From positions 1 through 56,376 of IMG/VR virus record IMGVR_UViG_3300031227_000051: a stretch of 56,376 nucleotides of DNA; one strand, given 5' to 3'. Positions within the stretch are counted from its first letter, which is position 1. Every line of letters starts with the position of its first letter. A program made the position numbers and the translations under genes. Below, piece after piece: positions 5,129 to 53,452 of this stretch. The notes under the pieces were generated by a model. The model was given only the letters and a program-made list of their open reading frames with translations. It did no database searches and was not told the DNA's origin. The DNA comes from a virus (lineage: Duplodnaviria > Caudoviricetes).

Positions 5129-5419
5129 ATGATAAAACTTAAAATATCTGATTACTATACAATATATGGTAAATCATATAATGTGCGTACAAAATACACA
5201 TGGAATGTTAATTACGAGCATAACAATTTATTCATACCAGAAGAGTTCAATCAACTCTCACGAGTAGGTAGTGTAATTTTCGATATAGATGAAGAAATTT
5301 TATCAATTAAAGAACCTGGATTTGCAATGGATGATCATGCTTATGTTGAATTTAAATGTAAATCATTTAAAGAGGCAGAAGAGTTGATGAATAAATTTAT
5401 TATTATTAAAACAATTTAG
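5129..5419 (+). CDS. hypothetical protein with YTIYG motif
   Basis: ORF track. Confidence 0.65.
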   Translation: MIKLKISDYYTIYGKSYNVRTKYTWNVNYEHNNLFIPEEFNQLSRVGSVIFDIDEEILSIKEPGFAMDDHAYVEFKCKSFKEAEELMNKFIIIKTI

Positions 5420-5432
5420 AGTAAATTATATA

Positions 5433-5747
5433 ATGTATGTAAAAATTAAAACTTGGAAACAAATGGAAAAAGAATTTGGACTTGATCTGGATGGTGATAT
5501 TTGCTGTCGCTTCTCATTTACAAATGCGATGGAGAAGCTTGTGCCCAAAAATAGAACAATAGAAGTGGGAAAACGTAAAAATGATGGTCCTGAACTATAT
5601 TTTGAATGACATAATGGATTATATTATATAACAGAAAATATGATAGAATTTAAAGTGTATACAATATATATGGAGAATTATATAATGCTTGTTAAAATTA
5701 AAACTTGAGAACAAATAAAAGACAAATATATTGACAAAAAAGAATAA
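5433..5747 (+). CDS. MYVKIKTW-family small protein (paralog A; two TGA=Trp)
   Basis: MYVKIKTWKQMEKEFGLD..., paralogous to 6211. Confidence 0.7.
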
Positions 5748-5785
5748 AAAGATAATATTGAATTATAAAAAGAAAGGAGATTATT

Positions 5786-6202
5786 ATGAGAAATGACAAT
5801 TTAGCTTCTATTCCTATTCCTCCAGGAAATACTATTATTGAACAATTTGAAATGGATAGTATGAGCAAAGAAGAATCGGCTTTTGAACTTAATATTTCAT
5901 TAGAACATTTAAATGATATTATAGAAGGTAATTCGCCAATTACAGTTAAAATTGCTAAGAAATTAGAAACTTTATTGGGACTTCCAGCAATTTTTTGGTT
6001 AGGACTTGAAGAAAGTTATCAAAAAGCAATTAATGAGCAGAGTAATTATAATTTTACAATTCGTTGTGGTTGTGGATGTACTATCAGAAGTAATCATTTG
6101 TCCATTTTTTGCCCAGATTGCGGGGCAAATTATAATACAGTGGTAAATTTTTGTCCATCAAAGCAAGAAGATATAAAAAAGCAAAGATTAAATGATAAAT
6201 AG
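5786..6202 (+). CDS. HigA-like HTH protein with C-terminal Zn ribbon
   Basis: PPG start, HTH, ITVKIAKKLETLLG..FWLGLE; CGCG...CPDCG. Confidence 0.7.
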   Translation: MRNDNLASIPIPPGNTIIEQFEMDSMSKEESAFELNISLEHLNDIIEGNSPITVKIAKKLETLLGLPAIFWLGLEESYQKAINEQSNYNFTIRCGCGCTIRSNHLSIFCPDCGANYNTVVNFCPSKQEDIKKQRLNDK

Positions 6203-6210
6203 GCGATATA

Positions 6211-6507
6211 ATGTATGTTAAAATTAAAACTTGAAAACGAATGGAAAGAGAATTTGGTCTTGACAAAGACGGCGAAATTACATGTAAGGGAATATTTTTA
6301 AAAAAAATGGAAAAAGTTATGCCCGAAGATAGAATGATAGATATTCATAAGTATGGTAAACCTTATGATTTTGGATGACAGTCCGCTTCTGGATGTTGAG
6401 AAATATCTCGTGATATGATAGATTATGAAGTATTCAAAATTTACACAATATATGGAGAGCGATACAATATTGGTAAAAAATCTTGACAAAATAATGAAAA
6501 AAAATAA
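6211..6507 (+). CDS. MYVKIKTW-family small protein (paralog B; four TGA=Trp)
   Basis: MYVKIKT-TGA-KRMEREFGLD aligns with TGG in paralog A. Confidence 0.75.
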
Positions 6508-6540
6508 TAATGTGAATAAGATAAATAAAGGGAGAAAATA

Positions 6541-7143
6541 ATGAAAACATACTTCACCTCTGATTGTCATTTTCAGCATGCCAATATTATTCTGTATGCT
6601 AACAGAAATCGTTGGATTAAAAATGGTGATTTAAATAAAGCAGGAAAATGGATTAGTAGAGATATTGCTGATCAACGTGTCACTAAGATGGACTCCGCTC
6701 TTATAAAGGCTTTCAATCATAAGGCAAAAGAAGATGATATAGTTTATCATATTGGTGACTTTATTTTTAAGGGCGGAAGAGAAGCGAACGGTAAAACTAA
6801 TGCTCAAACATACGAAAATAAAATTAACGCAAAAGTTATTCATATTCTTGGCAATCATGATCGTAATAATTCTGTTAAGGGTGGCCTTGAAAATGGAATA
6901 ATAAAGTTTGCTAATAAGTTATTTTACTTAATTCATCGTCCACCAATAAGCATTGAAGAAATTCCCTACAATGTTAATGCAGTTCTTTGCGGACATGTTC
7001 ATAATAATTGGAAATATAAATTCATTAATGACATACCTATTATTAATATTGGAGTTGATGTGTGGAATTATAATTTAGTTTCTACTCAACAAATAGCAGT
7101 ATTTTATGACAAAATAATGAAAGAAAAAAAATCGCAAAAATAA
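6541..7143 (+). CDS. calcineurin-like metallophosphoesterase
   Basis: SDCH, HIGD, GNHD, H, GHVH, INIGVD motifs. Confidence 0.9.
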   Translation: MKTYFTSDCHFQHANIILYANRNRWIKNGDLNKAGKWISRDIADQRVTKMDSALIKAFNHKAKEDDIVYHIGDFIFKGGREANGKTNAQTYENKINAKVIHILGNHDRNNSVKGGLENGIIKFANKLFYLIHRPPISIEEIPYNVNAVLCGHVHNNWKYKFINDIPIINIGVDVWNYNLVSTQQIAVFYDKIMKEKKSQK

Positions 7144-7147
7144 TATT

Positions 7148-7346
7148 ATGAAAATCAAATATAAAATAGACGGTAGTGCAGGTTGTCTAACAGAATGTCC
7201 ATTTTTTCCTGGCGTGATGATTGGAAGTCTCACTTGTAAGGACTGTAAAATACAATCATCATTGTCACAATGATGATGATGATAAACAAGGATATGTTGA
7301 TTGTGTGCGTAAAACGTATAATATATATGGTGAAGAAATTAATTAA
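7148..7346 (+). pseudogene. Cys-rich small ORF with an apparent +1 frameshift, ending YNIYGEEIN
   Basis: Removing one A near 7250 gives a continuous Cys-rich protein; may be a sequencing error. Confidence 0.45.
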
Positions 7347-7360
7347 AAAGAGGAGAGAAT

Positions 7361-7666
7361 ATGAATAAAACACAAGAAGTTAGCATCCCATTATCAGAGT
7401 ATTTAGAATTAAAAGAGATTCAAGAGCATGCAAAAGAGGTAAAGATTACAGAGAAATACGAGACCAAAACTCCTGATGGCGAAGATGACTTTCTTGGAAC
7501 AAGTGTCTCTTGGAAATCCGACGGCAAATGTTGGCTACATCTTGCCAACAAACTCAGAAATGCTGGGTTAAAATATAAGGAATTACAACAAAAATATGAC
7601 AAATTAAGAAGCATGAGCGTAAAAGAATTTAAGATGTTCAGAAAAGAACTTGACAAGAAATGATAA
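7361..7666 (+). CDS. hypothetical protein
   Basis: GAGGAG RBS; ends TGA-TAA. Confidence 0.65.
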
Positions 7667-7777
7667 AAAAGAATTGTATTAGTAATACATTGACAGAGTA
7701 GATATCGAAATTTTTGATAAGTACTTCCGATCTCAAAACAAAATTCTACTCTATCAATTAAAAAATTTGGAGGTAAT

Positions 7778-8233
7778 ATGAATATTAAAGATTTAGAACA
7801 AGTATTTTTAATAGCTAGTTTTTCTAATAGAGAAGATAAAGGCCCACTTCGTGCTTGGATAGAAAAAGAAGATATAGAAAATAAAATTTACATTTTATAT
7901 ACAGAACAAGGCGAACATCTTGAGTTTACAGGATTTTCAGAACATATATTTAGAATGATGATAGTAAGAATGAAAGAATATGAGAGAATTGGTCAAGAAG
8001 GATTGATAAAAAAATGGGGTCATGCTTATGACGAACTTGAAAGATTACGTATAGAACGTGAATATTTAAGAAAAGATGAAATAGAAACTATAAAGTATTC
8101 ACATGATGATATAATTGATGATATTAGAAAACGCATTGAAGAAGTAAAAGATAATCCAGATAAGGCTCGTGAAGTTATTATGAATTGTGGTTTATATGAT
8201 AAGAATGGTAATCTAAAAGATCAGTACAAATAG
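7778..8233 (+). CDS. hypothetical protein
   Basis: GGAGG RBS. Confidence 0.7.
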   Translation: MNIKDLEQVFLIASFSNREDKGPLRAWIEKEDIENKIYILYTEQGEHLEFTGFSEHIFRMMIVRMKEYERIGQEGLIKKWGHAYDELERLRIEREYLRKDEIETIKYSHDDIIDDIRKRIEEVKDNPDKAREVIMNCGLYDKNGNLKDQYK

Positions 8234-8244
8234 AGGAGAGTAAT

Positions 8245-8523
8245 ATGATGATAGGATATCAAGTGAGCAAAAGATATGAAGATTTATGGCAAATAATTGG
8301 TGCTGGCGCTGAGGTAATCGCTTACATTAAATGTAACGAAGATAAAAGAAGTCATACGGGCGAAGTTTGCACTATGAAAATGGAAGGAAATTTTATGCAA
8401 GCACGTTCAGAAGAAACAATGTATTTCATGTATAATATGCAAGAAGGCAAGGAAAAATTTATAAATAAATGTCACGATTACAAAGTGGAATTTTTACCAC
8501 CAAGTATGGGCATTAATAAGTAA
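8245..8523 (+). CDS. hypothetical protein
   Basis: GAGGAG RBS. Confidence 0.7.
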   Translation: MMIGYQVSKRYEDLWQIIGAGAEVIAYIKCNEDKRSHTGEVCTMKMEGNFMQARSEETMYFMYNMQEGKEKFINKCHDYKVEFLPPSMGINK

Positions 8524-8726
8524 AAGTTCTTGACAAATTATCAGCAATAATTATAGTAGTTATATAGAGTGATAAAGAGATTTTGTAATGAATATTTAGC
8601 TCAATAAGTCGAGAGCCGTACTCAAGAAGAATTCAAAGATGTGGGTTGCAATCCCACGATATTCATTATTAACTATAAAGTTCTTGACAAATTATCAGCA
8701 ATAATTATAGTAGTTATATAGAGTGA
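8523..8726 (+). repeat. ~50-bp exact direct repeat containing the TTGACA promoter (8523-8571 and 8677-8725)
   Basis: AAAGTTCTTGACAAATTATCAGCAATAATTATAGTAGTTATATAGAGTGA twice, each upstream of a tRNA-like gene. Confidence 0.9.
8590..8665 (+). ncRNA. tRNA-like RNA without a paired anticodon arm
   Basis: GAATATT/GATATTC acceptor, GCTC/GAGC D arm, GTGGG/CCCAC T arm. Confidence 0.6.
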
Positions 8727-8735
8727 AATTAGTGA

Positions 8736-8829
8736 GCGAGAATGGCGAAATGGTTACGCATCCCTAAAAGGGGATAGATAGATTATAGACGTATAACTGA
8801 TGCAGGTTCGAATCCTGCTTCTCGCACCA
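8736..8829 (+). ncRNA. aberrant tRNA (Leu-like body, 6-nt anticodon loop, long extra arm)
   Basis: GCGAGAA/TTCTCGC-ACCA, canonical T arm, ATCCC-TAAAAG-GGGAT. Confidence 0.65.
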
Positions 8830-8836
8830 TAAGTAT

Positions 8837-8940
8837 AACGAGAAAGCTGTAATTAGAACAGTAATACATAATGTTAATCATAGTGCACAATGAGTTATGT
8901 ATTTCAGTGAAAGCTGATGGATGCAACGTCCTCTCTCGTT
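8837..8940 (+). ncRNA. enlarged cloverleaf RNA
   Basis: AACGAGA/TCTCGTT closing stem; GCTGT/ACAGT, AATACATAA/TTATGTATT, TCAG/CTGA and GGA/TCC arms. Confidence 0.5.
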
Positions 8941-9041
8941 ATATTTTAATTAATGAGTACACAAAACGAAATCAATGTATAGTCAAGTAGTTGCCGGCGA
9001 CGAAAAAGGCATGACATTAATCGTTTTATTCGACTCGTTAT

Positions 9042-9110
9042 AGAGAGGTATTGTAATGATAACATGAGGCAATCCCCTCGATGCAGGTTCGAATCCTACC
9101 CTCTCGCCCA
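9042..9110 (+). ncRNA. compact tRNA-like RNA
   Basis: GAGAGG/CCTCTC, GAGG-CAATCC-CCTC, GGTTCGAATCC. Confidence 0.55.
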
Positions 9111-9118
9111 AAATTAAG

Positions 9119-9275
9119 TAAGATAGAACAGGTATTCATTATCAAAATTTGTGCTCTGACGTGTAAGCGTACGATGAGAGAAGGTTTATCTATATCATGT
9201 ATGTCCTAACATAGACTTGGGTCTATCACGTGGAACTGAAGGACGAAAAAATAAATACAAGTCAGTTCTATCTTA
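9119..9275 (+). ncRNA. structured ncRNA candidate
   Basis: TAAGATAGAAC...GTTCTATCTTA 11-bp terminal stem; no ORF. Confidence 0.45.
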
Positions 9276-9276
9276 T

Positions 9277-9368
9277 AGCATTCATTGGGCACTTAGTTCA
9301 AGACGGTAGAACAATCTCTGATTAGAGATTAAATACGAGTTCGAGTCTCGTAGTGTCCTTTGAATGCT
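9277..9368 (+). ncRNA. tRNA-like RNA (GAT/GATT loop) with an extended acceptor helix
   Basis: GGGCACT/AGTGTCC core 9287-9358; AGCATTCA/TGAATGCT extra helix; no CCA. Confidence 0.65.
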
Positions 9369-9483
9369 TAAATTATTAAAAAAATGCTTAAAAAATGAAA
9401 AAAAAATGATTTTTATTTACCAAGCATATACTTATTAGAAAGAAACGGAAAGTCTCGAAAGAGAAGAAATAAGGAAAATTAGA

Positions 9484-9624: not shown

Positions 9625-9651
9625 GTTATATACAACAAAACTTCTCCATTA

Positions 9652-9906: not shown

Positions 9907-9917
9907 TTTATATATTA

Positions 9918-11600: not shown

Positions 11601-12125
11601 ATGAAAAAGTCAGCACGAACAAATCTTAGAAAAAGAAGAAAGGCATTATTTGTGGAAAGAATGGGAGGCAAATGTTCTATTTGCGGATATAATAAGTGTA
11701 TTAATTCATTAGTATTTCATCATATTAATAAAAATGATAAGAATTATGAACCAGCACAACTAATGAATTTTTCTATCAAAAAGATAGAAAATGAATTAAA
11801 AAAGTGTATTTTAATTTGTGCAAATTGTCATGGAGAATTGCATTCAGAAAAATATGATTATAAAATTAATGTTCAAAAATATATTAGAGAATGAGTTGAA
11901 ATTGAATGTAAATTTTGTCATACAAACTTTTCAACAATGAATAAGAATAGAGTATATTGTTCACAAAAATGTAGTGATTTGGCATTACTAAAAGTTCCAA
12001 ATAGACCTACAAAAGATGAATTAAAAGAACTAATTTCCAACAATACATGAGTTGATATTGGAAGAATGTTTAGTGTATCAGATAACGCAGTAAGAAAGTG
12101 AGCAAAAAAATACAAATTAATATAA
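11601..12125 (+). CDS. HNH homing endonuclease with C-terminal Zn finger and HTH (3 TGA=Trp)
   Basis: CSICG..FHH..CILICANCHGELH; C-terminal IGRMFSVSDNAVRK-W after TGA read-through. Confidence 0.85.
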
Positions 12126-15468: not shown

Positions 15469-16347
15469 ATGAAAGTTCATTTTGTCTATAAGATTACAAA
15501 CACTATAAATAATAAAATTTATATTGGCAAACATTCAACAAATAATATTGAAGATAATTATATGGGCTCTGGTAAAATATTAATAAGAGCAATTAAAAAA
15601 TATGGTATTGACAAATTCAAAAAAGAAATTTTATATGAGTTTGACACACCTGATAAAGCATTTTCAATGGAAGCTAAAATCGTTAATAAAGAATTTATTA
15701 AAAGAAAAGATACGTATAATATTAAACTTGGTGGCGAAGGCGGATGAGATTATTTTAAAGGTACAGTTACAGTTAAAGACAAAAATGGAAATACATCCAG
15801 GGTATCCAAAAATGATTCCAGATATTTATCTGGTGAGTTATTTTCAATTGCAAAAGGCACTGTATCAGTCAAGGACAAGAACAACAAACACTATCGAATT
15901 GCATTAAATAATCATAAATACCTATCTGGAGAATTAGTTCATAACAAAACTGATTTAGTAACTGTTAGAGATAACGATAATAATACATTTAGCGTATCAG
16001 TAAATGACCCAAGATATTTGTCGGGAGAATTAGTTTTTCATTTAACTAATATTGCTACGGTTAAGGATAAAGATGATAATATATTTTGTGTGCCAGTAAA
16101 TGACCCAAGATATTTGTCGGGAGAGTTGGTTGGTATTTCAAAGGGAAAACATCACAGCGAAAAAACAAAGAAAAAAATATCAAAATCAGCAATGGGCAAA
16201 CATGTTGGCGAACTTAATTCTCAATATGGAACGTATTGAATTTACAATGAAAAATTAAAAGAAAGTAAAAAAATAACAAAAAAAGAACTGCAAAATTGAA
16301 TTGACAGAGGTTGAATTAAAGGCAGAAAAATAAATTGAGTTTTATAG
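15469..16347 (+). CDS. GIY-YIG homing endonuclease with four ~31-aa repeats and NUMOD3 (5 TGA=Trp)
   Basis: [28 protein letters not shown]; repeats VKD..ND.RYLSGEL; [10 protein letters not shown]; ends G-W-IKGR. Confidence 0.9.
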
Positions 16348-18039: not shown

Positions 18040-18732
18040 ATGAAATGTAAATATTGCGGTAAAGAAATAATCAATCCAAAATTTTGTAACAATAGTTGTG
18101 CGGCAAAGTATAATAATAAGAAACGTGGCAAAAGAAGTGATATAACAAAAAAGAAAATTAGTGAAAGTTTAACTGGAAGAATTTCAGGGAAGAAAAAAGA
18201 ATATGTAGAGAAAATATGCCCAGTATGTAAGATAAAATTTTATGTCAATAAGAATAATAAACAAAAAATGAAAAGAATATATTGCTCAAAAAATTGCAAA
18301 AATAAATGCCCCATACTTAAAGAGAAATATTCAGAAATGGCAAAAAAAAGATGTAGTACGTTAGAAGAAAAAAATAGAATGAGAGAAATTGGGAGAAAAG
18401 GTGGCTTTGGTACAAAAGGATATTTAAAATCAGGCATAAGATATGAGTCACTATTTGAAAAAAAATGCTTCATTTGATTAGAAGAAAACAATATTAAATT
18501 TATTCCACACAAAAGATTGCCAAATAGTGCAAAAGTTACTGACATATACATTTCTAATAAAAATTTGTGAATTGAACTGGATGGAATAGATAGACGTAAA
18601 AAGCAAAAATTTCTAAAAGATAATATCAAAAGATGAGAAGAAAAAATTAAATTATATGAACAAAATGAACTTAATTATAAAATATTTTATAATACAAACG
18701 AATTAATAGATTTTATTGGGGAATTATTTTAA
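18040..18732 (+). CDS. Zn-finger/NUMOD + Vsr/PD-(D/E)xK-like homing endonuclease (3 TGA=Trp)
   Basis: CKYCG, CPVC, CSKNC; TDIYISNKNL-W-IELDG after read-through; stop overlaps tRNA-Val. Confidence 0.8.
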
Positions 18733-22928: not shown

Positions 22929-23007
22929 AAAACAGAATCTCGTTTTATCAATGAATTCTCGGCTCGACATCGAGCAGAAACGTCAAATTAATGCAAAAGG
23001 AGTTGTG

Positions 23008-23802
23008 ATGAAGTTTACGGAAATAAATGATTTAAATTTAAAAGAATGAAAAGAAATTCGAGAAGAGCTATATATAACAACAAACGCTCTTTGATATACT
23101 GGACACGATGATTACAACTTGTTTAAGATACCAAAAAGAGATTTCTTACCTGAAAATTCAAAAACCTTTCATGGATTATTTATTCCAGAAATACCATATC
23201 AATTCATATCAAGATTTACAAAAGCCGGTGAAACAGTATGAGACCCGTTTTCAGGAAGCGGAACAACGCACAAGGTTGCTAAAATACTTGATAGAGAGTG
23301 CATTTCAACTGATTTAACGCCAACGGAAGATTTTATTGAATATGGTGACGCATTAACATATAAACCTCAAAAAAACGTACAAATGATATTTTTACATCCT
23401 CCTTATCATGATATCGTAAAGTACTCTGACAAAAGAGACGACATATCTAATTGCAAAGATGTTAAAAATTTTTTAATTAACTTTAAAAAGATAGTTGACA
23501 ATGTTACTCAGTATCTAGATGATTCAAGAATTTTAATATTAGTCTGTGGTAATATATACAAAAATAGTGAAGAAGTTTCTCTTGGTATATATTGCAAAGA
23601 AATTGTTAGAAATGCAGGATTTAGACTGAAGAGTCATATCATTAAAGATTATGGATGAACAAAAGGAGCCAAGAATAATAATTTAATGTATTACAGAAGA
23701 TTAAAGGGTGGATATAATAATTTTTATGGAGATAATATTTTTATATTACAAAAGAAAAAGTCATTCAATATTATTGATTTAAATGATATTTATAATAGTT
23801 AA
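23008..23802 (+). CDS. N4/N6 DNA methyltransferase (4 TGA=Trp)
   Basis: V-W-DPFSGSGTT SAM motif and HPPY catalytic motif join in one frame only under code 4. Confidence 0.88.
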
Positions 23803-25824: not shown

Positions 25825-26697
25825 ATGAAGTTTAATTTTGTTTATAAAATTACAAATATAGTTAATAATAAAATTTATATTGGCAAACATTCAACTGATA
25901 ATATTAAAGATGGATATATGGGTTCTGGATTATGTTTAGGTAGAGCTATTAAAAAATATGGCATTGATAAATTTAAAAGAGAAATATTATATGAATTTGA
26001 TACAAAAAAAGAGGCTTACTTAATGGAAGCAAAAATAGTTAATAAAGAATTTATTAAAAGAAAAGATACCTATAATATTAAACTTGGCGGAGAAGGTGGT
26101 TGAGACCACACAAGAAAAATGGTTACAATTAAAGATTCTACTGGAAATTGCTTTAATATTCCCATTAATGATCCTAGATATTTATCTGGAGAGTTAATCG
26201 GTGTAACAAAGGGGTTTATCCCAGTTAAAGATGAAAATGGCAATACTAGTCAAGTATCAGTAAACGACCATAGATATTTGTCAGGAGAACTAGTTGGCAT
26301 AGCAAAAGGTTTGGTTATGGTTAAAGATGAAAATGGCAATACTAGTCAAGTATCAGTAAATGATCATAGATATTTGTCAGGAGAACTAGTTCATATAGCA
26401 AAAGGTTTGGTTATGGTTAAAGATGAAAATAATAACATTTATAAGGTATCAAAAAATGATTCAAGATATTTGTCAGGTGAATTAGTTGGAATTTGAAAAG
26501 GCAGAAATCATTCAGAAGAAACAAAAAGAAAAATATCAAAATCTAACAAAAACAATCATATTGGAAAGTTAAATTCTCAATATGGAACATGTTGAATTAT
26601 GAATGAAAAATTACAAAAAAGTAAAAAAATAAAAAAAGAAGACTTACAATATTGACTAAATATAGGCTGAAGTAGAGGAAGAAAAATGTCAATATAA
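25825..26697 (+). CDS. GIY-YIG homing endonuclease, paralog of 15469 (5 TGA=Trp)
   Basis: same catalytic domain, four RYLSGEL repeats, NUMOD3, G-W-SRGR. Confidence 0.9.
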
Positions 26698-27955: not shown

Positions 27956-28156
27956 ATGGCGAAGAAAAGAGAAATTTCAGCATTTATGTGTATGATATAT
28001 TATATAATATTATCAGTTAGTCTTATAATATTGAAGTTTGCGAATATAATAAAGACAGATTGGTTAATGGTTCTTATACCCATTTATGTTCCTATTGTGA
28101 CAATAATTATAATTATACTTTTTTTGGTATTTTTGAGATTTCTCTGTAATGATTAA
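27956..28156 (+). CDS. small 2-TM membrane protein (paralog 1)
   Basis: LKF..I...W..VL.P motif. Confidence 0.65.
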   Translation: MAKKREISAFMCMIYYIILSVSLIILKFANIIKTDWLMVLIPIYVPIVTIIIIILFLVFLRFLCND

Positions 28157-28203
28157 ATAAGAAAAATTTATAACACAAAACAAATAAAAAAGGAAGATAG
28201 AAA

Positions 28204-28395
28204 ATGGAAAAGGAAACAGTTGCAAATGGAGGAGTCGGATTTTTTGGATGGTTAGCTCTTATTTTTATAGTATTAAAATTAACTAAAGTTATAACTTGGA
28301 GTTGGTGGTTGGTTACGTTACCTCTTTGGGGGCCTATTGCAATAATTATACTTATTGTAATAATAATAGGAACGGTTAGTCTATCAAGCAAATAA
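28204..28395 (+). CDS. small 2-TM membrane protein (paralog 2)
   Basis: FIVLKLTKVITWSWWLVTLPLW. Confidence 0.75.
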   Translation: MEKETVANGGVGFFGWLALIFIVLKLTKVITWSWWLVTLPLWGPIAIIILIVIIIGTVSLSSK

Positions 28396-28431
28396 CATAT
28401 TCAAATAAAGCAGATTGAATTACAATACAAA

Positions 28432-28668
28432 ATGAGGAGTATGAGAATGAATAAGAATAATGGAATGGGATTTGGAGGATGGTTAACGCTTACCTTTATT
28501 GTATTAAAATTAACGAAGGTTATAACTTGGAGTTGGTTATGGGTTTTGTCACCAGTTTGGATAGCCTTAGCTTTATTACTATCTCTTTATATAATTCTTT
28601 ATTTTGTCGAAGGAATATCAGTAAATAAACGAGTCAGACGATTTAAATGGTATGAAAGAAATAAATAA
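28432..28668 (+). CDS. small 2-TM membrane protein (paralog 3)
   Basis: FIVLKLTKVITWSWLWVLSPVW. Confidence 0.75.
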   Translation: MRSMRMNKNNGMGFGGWLTLTFIVLKLTKVITWSWLWVLSPVWIALALLLSLYIILYFVEGISVNKRVRRFKWYERNK

Positions 28669-33365: not shown

Positions 33366-33536
33366 ATGAAAAAAAGCGAATTAAAGCGTATAATAAAAGA
33401 AGAGATGGAAAAGGAAGAACGTCAATTCGCTCAAAACCGATCTATGAATGAAAACCTGAGATATAATATTTATGGAGAAGTTGTAGTGTCTATAAAAGTC
33501 GTAACCGAAAGTATAGATAGTATACTTGAATTTTAA
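33366..33536 (+). CDS. small protein with YNIYGE motif
   Basis: AAGGAG RBS. Confidence 0.6.
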   Translation: MKKSELKRIIKEEMEKEERQFAQNRSMNENLRYNIYGEVVVSIKVVTESIDSILEF

Positions 33537-33571: not shown

Positions 33572-33781
33572 ATGATGAATAACTTTGCCGAAATGAATAG
33601 AGTTGGGTGCAGAAGAAGAACAGGCGCACAAATGTTTACACCAAAGTTTACATCAAAACAAAGATATGATATTTACGGAAATATTATAATGTCATCTAGT
33701 AAAAGTTCGTGGGAAGAATATGTCAAAAATTACAAAATCTCTTTAAAAAATTGGATAGAAAATTGGAAATCAGATATGTAA
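33572..33781 (+). CDS. small protein with YDIYGN motif
   Basis: AAGGAG RBS. Confidence 0.6.
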   Translation: MMNNFAEMNRVGCRRRTGAQMFTPKFTSKQRYDIYGNIIMSSSKSSWEEYVKNYKISLKNWIENWKSDM

Positions 33782-43682: not shown

Positions 43683-44042
43683 GGGAGTGAAAAGGTATCG
43701 ACAGTGAGTCTTTCCTTAAACAATTCACATCATGTCTGCAACAAACATGTAAAACTATGTTGTAATTTTTCAAATGGCGAAAGTCTATTAATGGCGGCGT
43801 AAGCCTCTCCTAATGTAATGGCTATTCTTTCTCTATTATAAATTAGGTCAGTATGAAGGATAATCCGTAATCACTTAATGGATGACAAGATAAAGCGTGA
43901 GAACGTAATGCAATCGACTAGGATGCTGTGTTTTGTTTGTATGTTTATTTATCACATGATATAATAAAATATACTAAGTGTGTAAAAAAGATTGTGGTAG
44001 GTTACTTGTTGGACGTGGGTTCGACTCCCACCACTTCCACCA
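43683..44042 (+). ncRNA. ssrA: tmRNA
   Basis: GGGAGTG/CACTTCC-ACCA with G3-U70; tag ORF ~43770-43802 SNGESLLMAA*. Confidence 0.93.
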
Positions 44043-44071: not shown

Positions 44072-44218
44072 ATGGAAACCAAACCTAACAAATGACTGTA
44101 TAGGCCTTATTATGATATTTATGGTAATATTATAAGATATGCTTATACTGGTTCAAATATTATAAGATATGCTTATACTGGTTCAAATTTTGAAACATTC
44201 ATCATTCAAGTAAGTTAA
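44072..44218 (+). CDS. small YDIYGN protein with a 30-nt tandem duplication (1 TGA)
   Basis: METKPNK-W-LYRPYYDIYGNIIRYAYTGSNIIRYAYTGSN. Confidence 0.55.
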
Positions 44219-44226
44219 GAGGTATC

Positions 44227-44388
44227 ATGGGACATAAAAAATCAAACATAACTTTTGATTTAGACAAAATAAAGAAAAGACTTTACGAAATGAGAAATGA
44301 AAAGTCTTTAAAATCGAGACCTTACTATGATATTTATGGCAATGTTATTAGAAAAGGGATTCACTCACAATGACTAAAACAAAAGTAA
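44227..44388 (+). CDS. small YDIYGN protein
   Basis: GAGGT RBS; RPYYDIYGNVIRK; TGA at 44371 overlaps the next ATG. Confidence 0.6.
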
Positions 44389-44561
44389 CATATATTTACT
44401 CATCTCTTCGTGACTATACTACGATTGAACATTTATTGCATTGCTATGATATTTATGGTAATAATATAATTACAATATTTAAAAATATTCCAACGAGTTA
44501 TTGTGCTCAAATAGATTTGAACGAATGAACTATATCAGATAAAGACGAAAGTGATATGTAA
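44370..44561 (+). CDS. small YDIYGN protein (1 TGA)
   Basis: HCYDIYGNNI. Confidence 0.55.
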
Positions 44562-44597: not shown

Positions 44598-44771
44598 ATG
44601 GGTACAGGCTGGCAATACGATGAAAGAAGAAAGCTATTAAAAAAAGATCACATATTTAAACATAAATATCCTAGCCATCCTAGCTATGATATTTATGACA
44701 ATGTTATGAACATTTATCGTGAGAGAGACATTTATTGTAAGGTGGAATATCTTAATGATAAATGTCAATAA
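44598..44771 (+). CDS. small protein with YDIYDN variant
   Basis: AAGGAG RBS. Confidence 0.55.
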   Translation: MGTGWQYDERRKLLKKDHIFKHKYPSHPSYDIYDNVMNIYRERDIYCKVEYLNDKCQ

Positions 44772-45645: not shown

Positions 45646-46410
45646 ATGAAAAATTATAAAGTTATAGCAGATTTTGATGAAGTAAAGAAAATGATAGATT
45701 TATTCCCAGAATTACTTCCTAGCGAAGTGTTTTTCCTTTCATTATCTGCAAGAAAGAAGTATTTAACTGAATCTGAGAGAGAAATATATAATGTTAATCG
45801 TGCCGAAATGTTTGATCGAGTTATTGTTAGAGAAAAATCCTACGAGAAATTTCATAAGATTATGAGCAGAATGGAAACAAATGTTGAAGGTTTTACAACC
45901 AAATCTGGAATGAGTTATCCAGAGTCCTGCGTTGTTACTTATATTAATATAAATCCATCAAGTATGTTAAAGGCTAATGCTGAATATATGGCTAAGATTA
46001 ATCACTATACATTTGAAATGACTCAGGCTCTTTTGAATGGGAAACGATGTGATTCAATAATGAAAAAATTCAGCAAATTAGATGTTGAGTTAATGAATTG
46101 TATTCAAAGATGTCGTGGACAAAAAAAGTTTATTGATATTGATTTTGATATTGATAAGACAAAAGAATTTGAAGTTCTCGAAAATTTTATAAATTTTATG
46201 AAAGAAAATGACATTACCTATCATGTTATAGAAACAAAAAGTGGTTATCATGTATTAATGGAACGTTCAACAATTAATTGCAATTTTTACAAGAAAGTTG
46301 CAGAATTACATGAACTTGTAAATGATGAAGTTATTGTCAACAAGAATGAAATGATACCTTGTCCAGGAACATTACAGGGTGGACATTTAGTTCGTTTCTT
46401 GGATATGTAA
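45646..46410 (+). CDS. AEP primase-polymerase-like protein
   Basis: IDIDFD and ETKSGYH motifs. Confidence 0.5.
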   Translation: MKNYKVIADFDEVKKMIDLFPELLPSEVFFLSLSARKKYLTESEREIYNVNRAEMFDRVIVREKSYEKFHKIMSRMETNVEGFTTKSGMSYPESCVVTYININPSSMLKANAEYMAKINHYTFEMTQALLNGKRCDSIMKKFSKLDVELMNCIQRCRGQKKFIDIDFDIDKTKEFEVLENFINFMKENDITYHVIETKSGYHVLMERSTINCNFYKKVAELHELVNDEVIVNKNEMIPCPGTLQGGHLVRFLDM

Positions 46411-46418
46411 AAAGTAAC

Positions 46419-46670
46419 ATGAATGATTTGAAAATTGGCGATGTTGTTTATATTAAACAATCCAAAGGTCATAGCAACTGGGTTAAAGATTTATATAACA
46501 AGAGATTAACTATTAAAGAAATAACTCAAGACAATACTGAACGATATTCATTGTATGAGGACGTGATACCGCCGGCTTATTTGCCCATTACCTGGAGACG
46601 TGATGAATTAATTGCTAAAGCAGAAATCCCGTTCGCATACAATATCTGGGGAGAATTATGCATAAAGTAA
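46419..46670 (+). CDS. small protein ending YNIWGE
   Basis: LKIGDVV start. Confidence 0.6.
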   Translation: MNDLKIGDVVYIKQSKGHSNWVKDLYNKRLTIKEITQDNTERYSLYEDVIPPAYLPITWRRDELIAKAEIPFAYNIWGELCIK

Positions 46671-46945
46671 TATTAAATCACGGAGAAGATTGGACAAAAT
46701 ATATAGGAACAAAAGTTCGTATCATTAGTGGAGGTATGGGAGCGTTGGGATCAAACGATAAGATTGGATATTTAGTAAGTTCAAACAGTATAGTAAGATC
46801 AGGCTCTGGACGAAACATGGATTACCCAAGAGTAAAAGTTAAAGGTGTTGTTTGGGGTTTATGTCACGGATGGAAAATAGAAATTCAAAAAAGAGAAAAG
46901 ATATATGACATTTATGGAAATGTCGCAATAACAAAGAGGAAGTAA
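46658..46945 (+). CDS. small protein ending YDIYGN
   Basis: GGAG RBS. Confidence 0.65.
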   Translation: MHKVILNHGEDWTKYIGTKVRIISGGMGALGSNDKIGYLVSSNSIVRSGSGRNMDYPRVKVKGVVWGLCHGWKIEIQKREKIYDIYGNVAITKRK

Positions 46946-46947
46946 AA

Positions 46948-47388
46948 ATGAGAGAAGAGTTACAAAATAAATTATACGAAAAATGGCCAAAGTTATTGTC
47001 AAATCTTAAAAAAAATAGAAAAGCGAATGGCTCACCATTATCTTGGGATGGAATTGACGTTGGTGATGGTTGGTATGATATTGTTGATACATTATGTAAA
47101 AATATAGTATTATATTCACGTGAATATAATAGATCAAACGTTGATAAGTTTGACTGTAAAGTTCAGCAAATTAAAGAAAAGTTTGGCGGATTAAGATTTT
47201 ACATAGATGGCGGAGACAATCACATTCATGATTTAATTAGTAAGGCAGAAAATACTTCTGAAATAGTCTGTGAATTATGTGGTACATTCGATGATGTCGG
47301 TAAAACAGATGGTTGGATAACTACAATATGTCAAGAGTGTCATAGCAGAATAAATGACAATAGACATTGGAGAAAAATAGGAGATTAA
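46948..47388 (+). CDS. conserved phage protein (QIKEKFGGLRFY family)
   Basis: GDGW, KEKFGGLRFY, CELCG, GWITTIC. Confidence 0.75.
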   Translation: MREELQNKLYEKWPKLLSNLKKNRKANGSPLSWDGIDVGDGWYDIVDTLCKNIVLYSREYNRSNVDKFDCKVQQIKEKFGGLRFYIDGGDNHIHDLISKAENTSEIVCELCGTFDDVGKTDGWITTICQECHSRINDNRHWRKIGD

Positions 47389-48578: not shown

Positions 48579-48653
48579 CGCAGTATAGTTCAGTGGTAGA
48601 ACAATGAATTCTAAACTCATGTGTCGTAGGTTCGATTCCTACTACTGCGACCA
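48579..48653 (+). tRNA. amber suppressor tRNA (CTA)
   Basis: CGCAGTA/TACTGCG, A73, CCA; ATGAA-TTCTAAA-CTCAT. Confidence 0.9.
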
Positions 48654-49072: not shown

Positions 49073-49093
49073 ATTTATTATATAGGAGGTTAC

Positions 49094-49381
49094 GTGCTAT
49101 TTCTAGTTAAAAAAGGCACTAATGTAATTGTTGCAAAAGATATTAGCGACAAAAGTTTTCAACAAGATAGTTTAAAAAAGACAAAAGCGAAATCAGATAT
49201 GGCCTTTTCAAGAGACCTTATCGTGTTGGATCCTTTTGGGCTAAAAGAAGGTGCAATAAATCAACTAACATCCAGTAACGATGACATTAACGAGTTATTA
49301 GCAAAAGGATATTATGGCTTTAAAAACAAAAATACTGACCACATTTTTCTAATTCGTTCAGAAAATCTCAAACTATTTTAA
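49094..49381 (+). CDS. hypothetical protein
   Basis: GGAGG RBS, GTG start. Confidence 0.65.
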   Translation: MLFLVKKGTNVIVAKDISDKSFQQDSLKKTKAKSDMAFSRDLIVLDPFGLKEGAINQLTSSNDDINELLAKGYYGFKNKNTDHIFLIRSENLKLF

Positions 49382-49441
49382 AAAATATTGACAAAAAAGA
49401 CAAAAGAATTATAATAGTATTATAAATAAAGGGGAGATTTT

Positions 49442-49783
49442 ATGAGAGATTTGGTTCAAAAGATTTTAAATAGTAAGTATGGTAGATTAGTAATACTTTT
49501 CGATATGCTTTTGCAACTATCAATGCTTTTGGGAGCTGAATATTTAATTGATACTAAGCAGTATATACTACTGTCGATGATAGTTGTCATATTTGCGGTA
49601 AAATGTTATTATATTTCATATGTAATTATTAATGATTATAATATAAGACTTATCAAAGCAATAAATAATGAATCTCTAACGTGGCCACAGTGTCATAAAG
49701 AAACGTTAGAGTTTCACGATTATAATGAGTATGGCTGCGAAATTGTTTGTACAAATTGTAATTATTCAAAAGAGAGACAATAA
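49442..49783 (+). CDS. membrane protein
   Basis: promoter, RBS, 2 TM segments. Confidence 0.6.
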   Translation: MRDLVQKILNSKYGRLVILFDMLLQLSMLLGAEYLIDTKQYILLSMIVVIFAVKCYYISYVIINDYNIRLIKAINNESLTWPQCHKETLEFHDYNEYGCEIVCTNCNYSKERQ

Positions 49784-49784
49784 A

Positions 49785-50177
49785 ATGAAGATAGCATTTG
49801 ATGTTCACGGTGTTATTGCTGATAGATCAGATTTATTTAAACCCTTATTAAAGATGCTTAAAGAAAACGACATTAATGTTGTAATTATGTCAGGACCAAC
49901 AAAGAAAAGAATTATTGCTGAACTAGACAAGCTCGGTTATACAAAAGAGCATTATGATGATATTCTCTCTGTCGTTGATTACTTAAAAGGCAAAGATGTG
50001 AAGATGTGGCTTGATTACAAAAATGACTGGTGGGCTAGTGATGTAGATTGGTGGAAATCCAAGGGCGAAATGTGCAAACAAAACAAAGTTGACGTGTTGT
50101 TTGATGATAGTGAACAGTATAAATCTGGAATGCCTCCCGAAACCTTGTTTATTTTATTCAAAGATAAAATAAAATAA
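49785..50177 (+). CDS. HAD-superfamily protein
   Basis: IAFDVHGVI, IMSG, K, LFDD. Confidence 0.75.
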   Translation: MKIAFDVHGVIADRSDLFKPLLKMLKENDINVVIMSGPTKKRIIAELDKLGYTKEHYDDILSVVDYLKGKDVKMWLDYKNDWWASDVDWWKSKGEMCKQNKVDVLFDDSEQYKSGMPPETLFILFKDKIK

Positions 50178-50277
50178 ATTGACAAAATTGGTTACTCATT
50201 ATAAATTGTCTTTGTTGTATGAGAAGTTTCATTAGTGGTATGGATGAATTAGATTAAATAAAAAGTAATAATAAATT

Positions 50278-51006
50278 ATGGAGGACATAGTGGACAAGAA
50301 ACAAAAAATTAAATTTGTTGATGAATTATTGGTCGAGGTTGTTGAGCAGATAGAAAAACGTAGTGACGTTTATATTTCGTCAAACTTTGATTTAAAGACA
50401 GGCATTTTAGAGAACGAATGTCTGAATGAACATATTGAGAAATCAATAAATAAAATGCTTCAAAAACGTAACGAAAACGCAATTGCTAACTCTGTTATAG
50501 ATGACGAGTTATACAAAAGATTAATGAAGGGTAGGACCATTGTTTGGTCAGATGTTACGGGTTCTGTTATGGAGTCTGGATTTGATGTAGCTCTTAGTGT
50601 AATTAAAGATAAAGAAGGGAAAATTGTTTGCAAAATGAATGACGAAATTGTTGAGCTAATTATGAGTAAACTCGCAGTAAAAAATGATATTATTAATGGT
50701 TACTTAATTTCATCCGCCGGAGAGCGTCAAATCTTACTTCCATCTGAAATTAAAAATCTAAAATTTTATGAGGCGGAAGATGTGTATGATTATATGGGTA
50801 TTGAAATTATCGATCGTATTAAAAATTTATTCGTTTGTATTTCAAATGAAGGTGCGAAAGTAATATCAGACACCCATAATAAAAAATATATTGGAACATT
50901 GATCGATGCTAACAACAAAGATTTGATTGGTATTATAGAATCAAATCGAGATCGGAAAGAATTTCAAGCCGAATTACTAATACAAGAGAGTCAAATCGGA
51001 AAATAG
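50278..51006 (+). CDS. hypothetical protein
   Basis: 242-aa ORF. Confidence 0.7.
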   Translation: MEDIVDKKQKIKFVDELLVEVVEQIEKRSDVYISSNFDLKTGILENECLNEHIEKSINKMLQKRNENAIANSVIDDELYKRLMKGRTIVWSDVTGSVMESGFDVALSVIKDKEGKIVCKMNDEIVELIMSKLAVKNDIINGYLISSAGERQILLPSEIKNLKFYEAEDVYDYMGIEIIDRIKNLFVCISNEGAKVISDTHNKKYIGTLIDANNKDLIGIIESNRDRKEFQAELLIQESQIGK

Positions 51007-51070
51007 ATAATGAATTAAATTTAAAACGGTATCGCCCAAAAGCCTTACCGTTTTTTTTGTAGGAGAGATT

Positions 51071-52105
51071 ATGATGAAAACTGGTAAAAAAATTTATTTA
51101 AAACAATTAGCGGCAATATTTAATGATATGCCAGAAGCGGTATACGTAGTTGAACTTTCCAGTTATAAAATTTTATATTTAAACAAATTTCTTTTAAAAG
51201 CACTAAATATTGATGAGTGCAATTATAAGGGAAAGCAATGTTATGAGTTGTTGCAAGGTCTGTTAAAGCCATGCTCATTTTGTACAAACAAATCTTTGGA
51301 CAATCAAACAATTACATGGTCACACAGAAATTGCATTAATAACAATATATATCGTTGTATTGACAGAAAGGTATATATTGGCGATGCAGCAACGCCAGCG
51401 AAATTAGAGATTGCAATTGATATTACTGATGTTATTGGATATCAGGATGAAATTTTAAAAAATCAAAAAACATTAAAGAATAAATTAAAAGAAAAGGAAA
51501 TTTTAATAAAAGAAATACATCATCGTGTAAAAAATAATACTCAATTATTAGTTAGCTTATTACATCTACAAAGTATGAAAACAAGATCAAAGCCAATCAA
51601 AAATGTATTACTTAAAATAATAGAAAGAGTAAAGGCCATTTCTGCAACATATAACTCTTTATACTTAAATGATGATTTGGGTAAGATTAACTTGTCAAAA
51701 CATATTGAAGAAATTATCTCAAGTATTTCATTATCAATACTTGAGCCATATAACATTATAATTGAAAAGAATATTGAAAAAGATATAATAGTGGAAAACA
51801 TAAATAAAGTAACTCCATTAGGCATAATCATAAACGAATTGTTATCCAACTCTGTAAAGCATGCTTTCGTTGAAATTTCAAACAAAGAAACAAAAAATAT
51901 AATAATTAGTTTGACAAAAAATGAGGATACAATTCTACTTACAGTAGAAGATAACGGACTAGGGTTACCACCTGATTACAGTCTAAAACGGCAAATGACA
52001 ATGGGCTCACTTTTAGTTAGTACTTTAGCATCACAATTAGGTGCAAGAATAAAATATAATTCGGAAAACGGTACAAAGGTTACGTTAAGTTTTAAAATAA
52101 AATAG
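51071..52105 (+). CDS. soluble PAS-domain histidine kinase (HisKA_2 type)
   Basis: GKQCY..C.FC PAS; EIHHRVKNN; NELLSNSVKHAF; VEDNGLG; GTKV. Confidence 0.9.
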   Translation: MMKTGKKIYLKQLAAIFNDMPEAVYVVELSSYKILYLNKFLLKALNIDECNYKGKQCYELLQGLLKPCSFCTNKSLDNQTITWSHRNCINNNIYRCIDRKVYIGDAATPAKLEIAIDITDVIGYQDEILKNQKTLKNKLKEKEILIKEIHHRVKNNTQLLVSLLHLQSMKTRSKPIKNVLLKIIERVKAISATYNSLYLNDDLGKINLSKHIEEIISSISLSILEPYNIIIEKNIEKDIIVENINKVTPLGIIINELLSNSVKHAFVEISNKETKNIIISLTKNEDTILLTVEDNGLGLPPDYSLKRQMTMGSLLVSTLASQLGARIKYNSENGTKVTLSFKIK

Positions 52106-52113
52106 GAGAATCA

Positions 52114-52608
52114 ATGTTAGATAAAATCAGAAAAGATTTAGTGAAAGCTATCAAGAACAAAGAGAATGCAAAACGAGACGCTTTGAGATTGATAATAAAC
52201 GCCATTAATATCTACAAAAAAGATAATAACAAAACAGACAAAGATATTAAAGATGCATTAATTCATTCTTTAATACGAACAGAAATTAAACAAATTAGAG
52301 ATTTACTCATACATGCTTTAAATGAGAGACGAATTGAAATGTTAGAAGAGTTAAACGAAAGATTAAATATTTTTGATAGTTATATGCCTTCACAAATGCA
52401 TGACGATGATATAGAACGAGCATTACTTGTTATCGCAAATGACTTTAATATAAAATCAATAACAAACAGAGATAGAGGCACTATAATAAAGAAGGCAATT
52501 AGTGTATTTCAGGGAAGAGCAGATGGTCCTAGAATTAATCGAATATTGACGCAAATCATTAAAAGAAATGAGGAGGAGCAAAGTGAGCAAGAGATACACT
52601 TTATATAA
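52114..52608 (+). CDS. GatB/YqeY domain protein
   Basis: KAIK.K...RDALR..; Y.P.Q; GRADG. Confidence 0.75.
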   Translation: MLDKIRKDLVKAIKNKENAKRDALRLIINAINIYKKDNNKTDKDIKDALIHSLIRTEIKQIRDLLIHALNERRIEMLEELNERLNIFDSYMPSQMHDDDIERALLVIANDFNIKSITNRDRGTIIKKAISVFQGRADGPRINRILTQIIKRNEEEQSEQEIHFI

Positions 52609-52804
52609 CTTATCAGAAGAAGATATGGAGCAGTTATTAACGACAATTACTACCGAAAGATCATACAGTAGAACTGCCGAACAAACAGAGCTGATTTCTG
52701 TTGATTTCGCTGATGAATCATTTTTAGATGGTACACCAAAGTATAAAATTGAAATAAGCTCAGACAATGACGAATTAAAAAAACGTTTTGGGCACAAAAA
52801 ATAG
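52568..52804 (+). CDS. hypothetical protein (start probably GTG 52583)
   Basis: GAGGAG RBS. Confidence 0.6.
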   Translation: MRRSKVSKRYTLYNLSEEDMEQLLTTITTERSYSRTAEQTELISVDFADESFLDGTPKYKIEISSDNDELKKRFGHKK

Positions 52805-52813
52805 GAGGTTTAG

Positions 52814-53179
52814 TTGATTTATATTGTAATTATATTACACTTTTTGTCAGACTGGGTTTTTCAGCCTAGAAATGTTGCGAAACGAAAATCAAGCTCATTA
52901 AAGTGAATGGCAAAGCATTTAATTGTAGTACATCTCATGTTTACTGTATTGGCTATGTACTTACATATTTCTCACTATTGAGTTATTTTAAATACGATTT
53001 CTCATTTTATCATTGACAAAAATATATGGACTTTATATAAGAAGATAAGAGTTGGTGATGATTATCCGAAAGAGTATCTTGAAAAAAATAAGTATGCAGA
53101 GGATTATTGATATTTTTTCACAATAGCAATTGACCAGATGATACATTTATCAATATTAATGTTCATTTTTGTAAGGTAG
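52814..53179 (+). CDS. DUF3307-like membrane protein (3 TGA=Trp)
   Basis: GGAGG RBS, TTG start; HFLSDW.FQ, HFIID, DQMIH. Confidence 0.8.
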
Positions 53180-53185
53180 AAGATT

Positions 53186-53452
53186 ATGAGCTACAATATA
53201 TATGGCGAGCATTTAGAATTTGAGAGAGAGATTATTCGATCTGACGACATCGTAAGTGTAGTTTCAGTACTTCACATGAAGCTTAAAGAGAGGGATACGA
53301 ACTGGTTAACGGCGGAGAATTTGGGAATATCTCTTGGTGATAAATTCACAGTAAGCAAGGTTAGTAAGGACTACAGAGGACTTTGGTTGCATTTAAATAA
53401 TTTACGTTACGCTCGCCCAATAGAAAAATTTTCAAAAGTAGATAAGAAATAA
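53186..53452 (+). CDS. small protein starting MSYNIYGE
   Basis: ORF track. Confidence 0.65.
   Translation: MSYNIYGEHLEFEREIIRSDDIVSVVSVLHMKLKERDTNWLTAENLGISLGDKFTVSKVSKDYRGLWLHLNNLRYARPIEKFSKVDKK

Follow-up and report, generated by a model that had tools for sequence, protein, structure and literature searches.

The window analysed here is the whole 56,376-bp virus record IMGVR_UViG_3300031227_000051, a fragment of a large salt-lake phage with 30% G+C in which all convincing genes lie on the + strand. A short peptide motif, Y[DNT]IYG, recurs in small genes distributed over much of this stretch. These genes are referred to below as carriers and are named by the position at which they start (Table 1). 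Six-frame translation of the window gives 11 sites that match the strict pattern and 13 when the two variants, YDIYDN and YNIWGE, are included. The first-pass annotation of this DNA had reported 13 sites, and all 13 coordinates were recovered. At 5658, where it had noted a frameshifted YTIY, the frameshifted peptide is present and the motif itself is at 5660, outside any open reading frame (ORF).

All strict sites (11/11) and all sites of the extended set (13/13) are on the + strand, and none is on the − strand. In 300 dinucleotide-preserving shuffles, searched on both strands, the mean number of sites was 0.06 (strict) or 0.037 (extended) with a maximum of 1, and the amino-acid composition of the 13,992 residues in ORFs predicts 0.025 sites. 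The count of 11 to 13 sites is therefore to be set against an expectation of approximately 0.03 to 0.06, as the proposed comparison with shuffled controls required. The motif is also sharply defined. Allowing one mismatch adds only three matches on the + strand (YTIWFE at 2179, YTIYME at 5658 and the variant at 44685) and one on the − strand, and YTIYME is the other frame of the 5660 site. The + strand holds 12 exact sites against these 3, and the sequence around the sites cannot be aligned. In an alignment of the 13 sites, the six core columns each contain 2.5–4.4 bits and the flanks about 1 bit, and beyond the core information is present only at a hydrophobic residue two positions downstream. 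The full motif deduced from the alignments is eight residues long, Y-[DNTS]-I-[YWH]-G-[NEKD]-x-hydrophobic, where the S, H and D alternatives were taken from homologues of one carrier family found outside the window (the KIKTW family, described below). Position 2 is small and polar, and the Gly is invariant except for one replacement by Asp. Positions 2 and 6 are perfectly coupled, D occurring with N (7/7) and N with E (5/5) (Fisher's exact p ~0.001, calculated by hand).

Selection acts on the peptide, and a DNA site is excluded as the basis of the motif, because conservation is 3-periodic, codon choice matches usage in the window and one frame is used at 12 of 13 sites. Nucleotide conservation is limited to the 18 nt of the motif and is lowest at positions 3, 6, 9, 15 and 18, with no conserved DNA within 50 nt on either side. 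TAT encodes the Tyr residues at 9/13 and 11/12 sites, compared with 81% window-wide. The Ile codons ATT/ATA/ATC are used 7/5/1 times (52/40/9% in the window) and the Gly codons GGA/GGT/GGC 6/4/2 times (42/35/16%). Twelve sites are in the Y-x-I-Y-G frame of a plausible ORF, though no stop codon interrupts the motif in its +1 frame either, and the sole exception is the 5660 site, which forms the tail of a frameshifted paralogue of the 6211 gene. The comparison of in-frame with out-of-frame occurrences thus favours a peptide signal, as the first-pass annotation had supposed from the varied synonymous codons, and outside the window the peptide is retained with T/S/N and E/K/D/G at its variable positions. 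A Sigma-70-type promoter or a ribosome-binding element in the DNA is at odds with the 3-periodic variation, the window-like codon usage, the unconserved flanks and the use of one frame.

Table 1. Motif carriers and other features of the window. Sites are strict unless marked as variant.
Feature	Position	Strand	Product	Motif site	Remarks
Carrier	5129-5419	+	96 residues	YTIYGK, 5156-5173	residues 10-15, near N-terminus
Carrier	5433-5747	+	KIKTW-family paralogue	YNIYGE, 5660-5677 (+2 frame)	YTIYME at 5658 in own frame
Carrier	6211-6507	+	KIKTW family, 98 residues	YTIYGE, 6442-6459	4 TGA as Trp, 0 TGG
Carrier	7221-7346	+	41-codon ORF, TTG start	YNIYGE, 7317-7334	3 residues before stop
Carrier	33366-33536	+	56 residues	YNIYGE, 33462-33479	strong Shine-Dalgarno
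Carrier	33572-33781	+	69 residues	YDIYGN, 33665-33682	internal; strong Shine-Dalgarno
Carrier	44072-44218	+	48 residues	YDIYGN, 44111-44128	30 nt past tmRNA
Carrier	44227-44373	+	48 residues	YDIYGN, 44326-44343	
Carrier	44370-44528	+	52 residues	YDIYGN, 44445-44462	internal
Carrier	44598-44771	+	57 residues	YDIYDN, 44685-44702	variant
Carrier	46419-46670	+	83 residues (103 from TTG 46359)	YNIWGE, 46638-46655	variant; 4 residues before stop
Carrier	46658-46945	+	95 residues	YDIYGN, 46904-46921	7 residues before stop
Carrier	53186-53452	+	88 residues	YNIYGE, 53192-53209	residues 3-8, N-terminal
TGA-type genes (two-class Trp coding)	11601-12125, 15469-16347, 18040-18732, 22951-23802, 25825-26697, 6211-6507, 55887-56375				
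Unusual tRNA features	48579-48653; 9287-9359; 8736-8829; 8590-8665				

The carrier genes and the KIKTW family

Most carriers fall in clusters at 5.1–7.3 kb, 33.4–33.8 kb, 44.07–44.77 kb and 46.4–46.9 kb. The transfer-messenger RNA (tmRNA) gene is located at 43683-44042 (Rfam, 96 bits) and is followed by four carriers in tandem, as previously noted, and the reported occurrence of the motif at N-termini, at C-termini and internally is also seen. Two pairs of carriers are adjacent genes (sites 33462/33665 and 46638/46904), and in each pair YNI[YW]GE in the first gene is followed by YDIYGN in the second. Clear Shine-Dalgarno sites precede six carriers, like those of reference genes, and GGGGAGAA in the 46419 carrier doubles as the ribosome-binding site of the next gene.

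The carriers appear mostly unrelated outside the motif, with some paralogues among them. An all-against-all blastp comparison of 341 ORFs links carriers only through the motif or through evident paralogy, and the earlier description of the carriers as mostly unrelated therefore stands as far as blastp and hhalign go, with two qualifications: the 5433 and 6211 genes are paralogues (5433 with the ORF from 6241, blastp E 2e-11), and the 44072 and 44227 products have RPYYDIYGN in common. The N-terminal 22 residues of the 5129 protein also resemble the tail of the 6211 protein (blastp E 0.002). In the 5433 gene, an (AT)n run contains 2 extra bases that shift the tail out of frame, and a third, truncated KIKTW start (MLVKIKTW) is found at 5687. 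A gene that starts at 7148 may have undergone a frameshift, in which case the 7221-7346 ORF would be its 3′ part.

Ten carriers gave nothing significant against Pfam and PHROGs. In tblastn searches of 50,697 phage records, one of two carriers gave a single match at E 0.8 and the other none. Word-indexed homologue searches returned the 6211 protein itself only, a single 99%-identical protein for the 53186 carrier, and one homologue besides itself for the 46658 carrier. This last homologue is 67% identical overall, and its last 15 residues, which include the motif, are identical. The ESM Atlas offered no usable lead. The 44111 motif is directly followed by a direct repeat of ~33 nt (44129-44194) in which NIIRYAYTGS is encoded twice. 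Another tandem family, also of small genes but without the motif, is present at 27956-28668, where three adjacent ORFs (27956, 28204 and 28432) are mutually paralogous (blastp E 4e-7 to 2e-18).

The KIKTW family of small phage proteins, of which the 6211 and 5433 products are members, shows how the motif is attached. An exhaustive HMMER search with the 6211 protein found 294 relatives at E ≤ 1e-3, of which 22 reach E ≤ 1e-10. Family members are mostly 70–90 residues long (~75), have an invariant Trp at position 8 and follow the consensus MxVKIKTWxxMExEFGLDxxGxIxCxxxFTxxMExxMPxDRII...W....WxISxDMIE. No Pfam model matches them, 12 tail-bearing homologues included. The domain ends at about residue 72 of the 6211 query, just ahead of the motif, which occupies residues 78–83 and lies beyond the folded domain (residues 1–74).

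Tail classes were counted among the 149 best foreign matches. A tail of the motif type, [YF][TSN]I[YH]G[EKDG], is located 3–8 residues from the C-terminus in 14 of these, and 5 of the 14 end exactly at G-x-x-I. A different aromatic tail, D[YH]P[EQ]Y[YF][ILV], is found at the very end of ~10 homologues and two others carry ...[SY]-[IT]-Y-G-I-A-K-P-L-G; neither form occurs in the window. Most of the 149 stop shortly past the DMIE helix and have no tail. The family may use interchangeable tails in general. Because the domain ends before the motif and 14/149 foreign homologues carry the tail, the motif also exists beyond the window, where it is an optional addition at the C-terminus of a domain that is complete in itself. 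Such presence and absence among homologues of one domain is the behaviour of a short linear motif. The motif tail is rare in the family, and the remaining carriers in the window are not members by hhalign (probability <1% for the 46658 and 46419 carriers).

Structures were modelled for the 6211 and 46658 carriers. The AlphaFold2 model of the 6211 protein, built on a 91-sequence alignment, has a mean predicted local distance difference test score (pLDDT) of 84, with 86–96 in each ten-residue block to residue 70, and consists of a small beta barrel and two short helices. In the tail that bears the motif the scores are 76, 59 and 53, and there is no regular secondary structure. For the 46658 carrier the model is weak, with a pLDDT of 58.6, and confidence is again lowest in the tail (34). 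Foldseek found nothing at E ≤ 0.001 for the 6211 model. The highest Z from VIA-align was 4.5, for the Mib repeat and SH3-like small barrels, and the predicted fold may be described as loosely SH3-like.

Distribution and genome setting

Outside the window, comparable numbers of the motif are not seen. Five other phage records (25–548 kb) with KIKTW members contain 0–3 Y.IYG[DENK] sites each, compared with 0–1 in controls. A scan of IMG/VR with the KIKTW alignment found 7 loci with family members and no strict motif. When IMG/VR was scanned for DNA that could encode YDIYGN[VI]I, 34 loci were recovered; every one has a single site, which falls in an unrelated protein or in a frame that is closed or non-coding. 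A gapped pattern gave at least 115 loci, and among those listed none has two or more motifs or a convincing KIKTW-family gene. No relative was found in IMG/VR with the ligase as query or in a scan of genome contigs, and a metagenome scan anchored on the 45646 gene returned 3 loci of 1.1–1.3 kb without carriers. As the other KIKTW-bearing phages and the IMG/VR loci lack comparable motif numbers, the 13-site enrichment appears to be a property of this phage lineage and not of large phages generally.

DNA of the window is present in salt-lake metagenome runs of 2017–2019, no RNA run being listed among them, and contigs as long as 62–179 kb are available from the salt-lake runs. Contigs from four other runs match the window exactly and also bring to light a diverged relative. 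The contigs of this relative skip 46287-47062, a stretch with two carriers, so at least these two carriers sit in a variable slot. Among the contig variants listed, none changes a motif site, which has no bearing on selection there. Motif sites lie a short way downstream of a few contig joints (44109, 46880 and 46887), but the joints have short sides and are unreliable.

At the DNA level, matches to named phages (Bacillus phage G and the Lak phages) are only distant. The window holds 35 tRNA genes as well as the tmRNA, and Pfam matches include NAPRTase, MazG-like, metallophosphatase, NAD-dependent DNA ligase, ClpX, Thg1, Lar, a Dam-type methylase, DenV, UDG, TIR-like, RNA ligase 2, a cREC receiver, histidine kinase, YqeY, the N-terminal part of RtcB and several homing endonucleases. 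Taken together, the matches show an accessory region with nucleic-acid repair and tRNA functions at its core. The phage ClpX (28786-30102) is complete, with its zinc finger and its GYVG, RKH and IGF elements, and from its sequence could be able to work with host ClpP. The tag frame of the tmRNA, read by eye, appears to end in ...GESLLMAA.

Unusual tRNA features (Table 1) comprise a tRNA with a CTA anticodon, of the amber suppressor type, though TAG ends several long genes; another whose anticodon loop (gatt) is 8 nt long; a tRNA-like gene of 94 nt in which the anticodon arm is odd; and one further tRNA that scores weakly in Rfam (33.5 bits). At the end of the window, the 54974-55594 ORF matches only the N-terminal 153 of the 426 positions in the RtcB profile and is followed by an I-TevI-like zinc-finger/NUMOD3 gene with an in-frame TGA (55887-56375). 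RtcB may have been interrupted by a mobile element, and the window ends at this point.

Tryptophan is encoded differently in two classes of genes. After removal of overlapping ORFs, 69 ORFs contain 143 TGG and no TGA, and 24 ORFs contain 57 TGA and 27 TGG (Fisher p ~3e-33). Genes for homing endonucleases (GIY-YIG, HNH and I-TevI-like), a DNA methylase gene and some small genes encode Trp with TGA alone. The two GIY-YIG endonuclease paralogues each have 5 TGA and no TGG, and in both the Pfam GIY-YIG domain precedes the first TGA and the NUMOD3 motif follows several. The HNH gene at 11601-12125, the methylase gene at 22951-23802 and the 6211 carrier also use TGA only. Reading on past TGA gives a median of 45 codons without TAA or TAG, compared with 10–13 past TAG or TAA. 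When 30 foreign homologues are aligned to the 6211 protein, an invariant Trp stands at its first TGA, and the next two TGA match columns that are mostly Trp. TGA is thus read as Trp in a subset of genes that includes the homing endonucleases, the methylase and the 6211 carrier, in agreement with the first-pass annotation for this subset; its use of code 4 for the whole window does not extend to the 69 ORFs that use TGG alone. The 6442 site falls in an ATG-started ORF only on this reading. The 44072 carrier, which has an ATG start only if the TGA at 44093 is Trp, probably also reads TGA in this way, and the other carriers read alike under either code. Among the tRNA genes of the window, none with a UCA anticodon was found. 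The GIY-YIG paralogues are 83% identical over their first 92 residues, and each has four ~30-residue repeats of the V-K-D-x-N-G-N... type between the nuclease domain and NUMOD3.

Interpretation of the motif and comparison with known systems

Selection on the peptide, carriers in which no mutual homology is detectable and an optional tail outside a folded domain together point to a portable docking tag for a common partner. This reading is preferred, tentatively, and is rated a little below an even chance. A short core shared by proteins that have no other homology is what short linear docking motifs look like. Present in frame in at least 12 small genes of the phage fragment, the motif would be a docking peptide of this kind. 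It is probably a small, amphipathic beta-strand or hairpin with Ile and Tyr on one face; it would bind in a groove of a single shared partner and could add to that partner's sheet or groove. The strand or hairpin is suggested by known turn preferences, given the alternation of Tyr and Ile, the Gly, the polar position 2 and the hydrophobic residue three positions past the Gly. Such a partner would be peculiar to the lineage of this phage or to its host, and through the motif many small accessory proteins would be linked to one machine, with recruitment, delivery, packaging or turnover as candidate outcomes. The first-pass annotation had proposed a docking, packaging or modification motif that recruits cargo, or else decoy peptides. 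The optional terminal tail fits the docking form of this proposal; the partner it calls for was not found. Phage ClpX is an obvious candidate because of the adjacent tmRNA and its functional loops, with nothing that ties it to the motif. Co-folding of the ClpX zinc-finger domain (residues 1–60, two copies) with the 44227 carrier gave 0.18 against a mark of 0.34, a result that decides neither way.

Several observations weigh against the docking tag, and the lack of an identified partner in this analysis is one of them. The low pLDDT of the modelled tails may reflect a thin alignment rather than flexibility, and five sites are internal in proteins of 48–69 residues, where a position outside the fold has little meaning. 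The tail-bearing foreign homologues are all on metagenome contigs of 3157 bp or less, which puts their genomic context out of reach. The maximum-likelihood tree of the KIKTW domain is poorly resolved and does not separate a single from a repeated gain of the tail: the best tree requires 6 changes, its well-supported branches force 1, and 53 of 500 label shuffles do equally well. The coupling of positions 2 and 6 and the tandem carriers fit a small number of ancestral cassettes that spread by duplicating locally, not recruitment of each copy independently. In addition, the motif starts exactly 44 nt upstream of the next ATG at three sites (7317/7361, 44326/44370 and 46904/46948), although 3, 9 and 7 residues, respectively, separate it from the stop, which hints at an added constraint at the nucleic-acid level. 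Descent and docking are compatible, as a tag can spread by duplication and recombination at gene ends and then be kept by selection.

Local duplication is the basis of an alternative in which the carriers are small paralogues from an old family that diverges fast. The motif would be their conserved structural core, a hairpin that alone remains recognisable after tandem duplications and has no common partner. Besides the clustering and the coupling, which suggests few ancestral subtypes, related extensions are shared by neighbouring sites (RPYYDIYGN[IV]IR at 44111 and 44326; YTIYG[EK]xYN at 5156 and 6442, with YNIYGELYN at 5660), and [DNT] at turn position i with Gly, once Asp, at i+3 is typical of tight beta turns. 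However, neither blastp nor hhalign detects similarity beyond the motif, its place in the chain varies from N-terminal to internal to C-terminal, and an old drifting family would be expected to leave more degenerate copies than the very few observed. In the KIKTW family, moreover, the motif is an addition past a complete domain and is missing in most homologues, and this explanation is considered unlikely. If instead the hairpins paired with each other, the motif would be a self-association module that forms homo- or hetero-oligomers, possibly joining NE-type with DN-type. The amphipathic Tyr/Ile pattern and the order NE then DN in both adjacent gene pairs would suit this, and the coupled D..N and N..E could be complementary contacts. 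It is nevertheless improbable, as the four carriers after the tmRNA are all DN-type and the 14 foreign KIKTW tails combine T/S or N with E/K/D/G and include no DN-type.

The 44-nt spacing speaks for a signal in nucleic acid or translation near gene ends, either a promoter/ribosome-binding cassette or a nascent-peptide element that modulates termination and coupling. In addition, the starts at 46658 and 5687 use GGAGAA of the motif as their Shine-Dalgarno sequence, and several sites, together with all 14 foreign tails, lie 3–15 codons before a stop. But the spacing was noticed post hoc at 3 of ~10 sites, the changes at position 6 (E, K, D, N) destroy GGAG, and two N-terminal and five internal sites are far from any start. 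With 3-periodic conservation, unconstrained codon use, only one of two open frames used at 12/13 sites and unconserved flanking DNA also opposed to it, such a signal is very improbable as the main role of the motif; the spacing and the ribosome-binding use leave room for a secondary role in gene coupling. A recognition site for an enzyme is considered just as doubtful, whether the enzyme modifies Tyr or Gly, is a maturation protease or, if the motif were a degradation tag, is an AAA+ protease such as phage ClpX with host ClpP. The complete ClpX, the LLMAA end of the tmRNA tag and the four carriers that follow the tmRNA speak for it, and a beta domain with a flexible peptide tail recalls SspB (weak fold rows, Z 2.5–2.7). 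However, the motif is unlike the known ClpX tags (LAA-COOH, MuA-like C-terminal and lambda O-like N-terminal), is internal in five carriers, and is not matched by any protease or modifying enzyme of suitable specificity in the window.

A more elaborate form of the docking tag, possible but on balance unlikely, is an address system that evolved in this lineage. A Tyr-x-Ile-Tyr-Gly hairpin would have been moved between genes by recombination at gene ends, plugging a dozen or more unrelated accessory proteins into one hub, with two matched flavours, YNIYGE and YDIYGN, in adjacent pairs. The hub could be a structure such as an unfoldase, translation or tRNA-repair machinery, or an import site of the virion or a compartment. 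Most small genes of large phages lack both a known function and relatives, and a shared tag would provide one experimental handle on a dozen of them. If the docking tag is correct, the binder of the peptide would reveal the destination of all carriers, and the window would hold a rare case in a bacterial virus of a lineage-specific short linear motif across unrelated proteins.

Several known elements have a similar form and were rejected as identities for the motif. GIY-YIG domains, which have their GIY and YIG elements some 10 residues apart in a domain of ~80 residues, or their remnants were set aside: none of the 10 carriers scanned matches them in Pfam, while the true GIY-YIG genes at 15469 and 25825 do. 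YD/RHS and WG repeats and AbrB-type swapped hairpins have the same hydrophobic-D-x-x-G-[NRK]-hydrophobic-x-hydrophobic pattern. There, the turns are repeated or lie within a domain and their residues vary, whereas here the motif is single-copy with invariant Ile and Tyr; 10 carriers have no Pfam match to any of these families at E ≤ 1, and each protein has one motif. An ssrA-like C-terminal ClpX degron is a non-polar extreme C-terminus of the LAA-COOH type, and here 3–82 residues follow the motif and 7/13 sites are N-terminal or internal.

Short docking or targeting peptides shared by several proteins are a known kind of element, represented by clamp-binding motifs, the T4 capsid targeting sequence and the tails of protease adaptors. 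SspB adaptors and ssrA tags likewise combine a small beta domain with a flexible tail that bears a short conserved peptide, and this phage has ClpX and a tmRNA, but the motif does not look like LRVVK or LAA, and some of its copies are not terminal. The T4 capsid targeting sequence also sends several unrelated small phage proteins to one place. It occurs at the N-terminus only, where the prohead protease cuts it off at L/I-x-E, whereas only 2/13 sites are N-terminal here and the window has no protease or structural genes. A T4-type sequence was rejected on inspection. Clamp-binding motifs (QL[SD]LF and PIP boxes) are likewise peptides of 5–8 residues that occur at any position of unrelated proteins and lead to one hub. 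Their sequence is different: the present motif has no Gln and a core of Tyr/Ile/Tyr/Gly. There is no clamp gene in the window, and this identity was also rejected on inspection. Clamp-binding motifs insert as a strand or into a pocket on their hub, where docking of the present motif is predicted from sequence. Among the matches listed by a full-text search, YDIYGN and YNIYGE appear in no paper, and the few matches to YTIYGE concern Helicobacter HtrA. As far as these searches show, it is the sequence of the motif, its multiplicity in one phage and its two coupled flavours that are new with respect to these systems.

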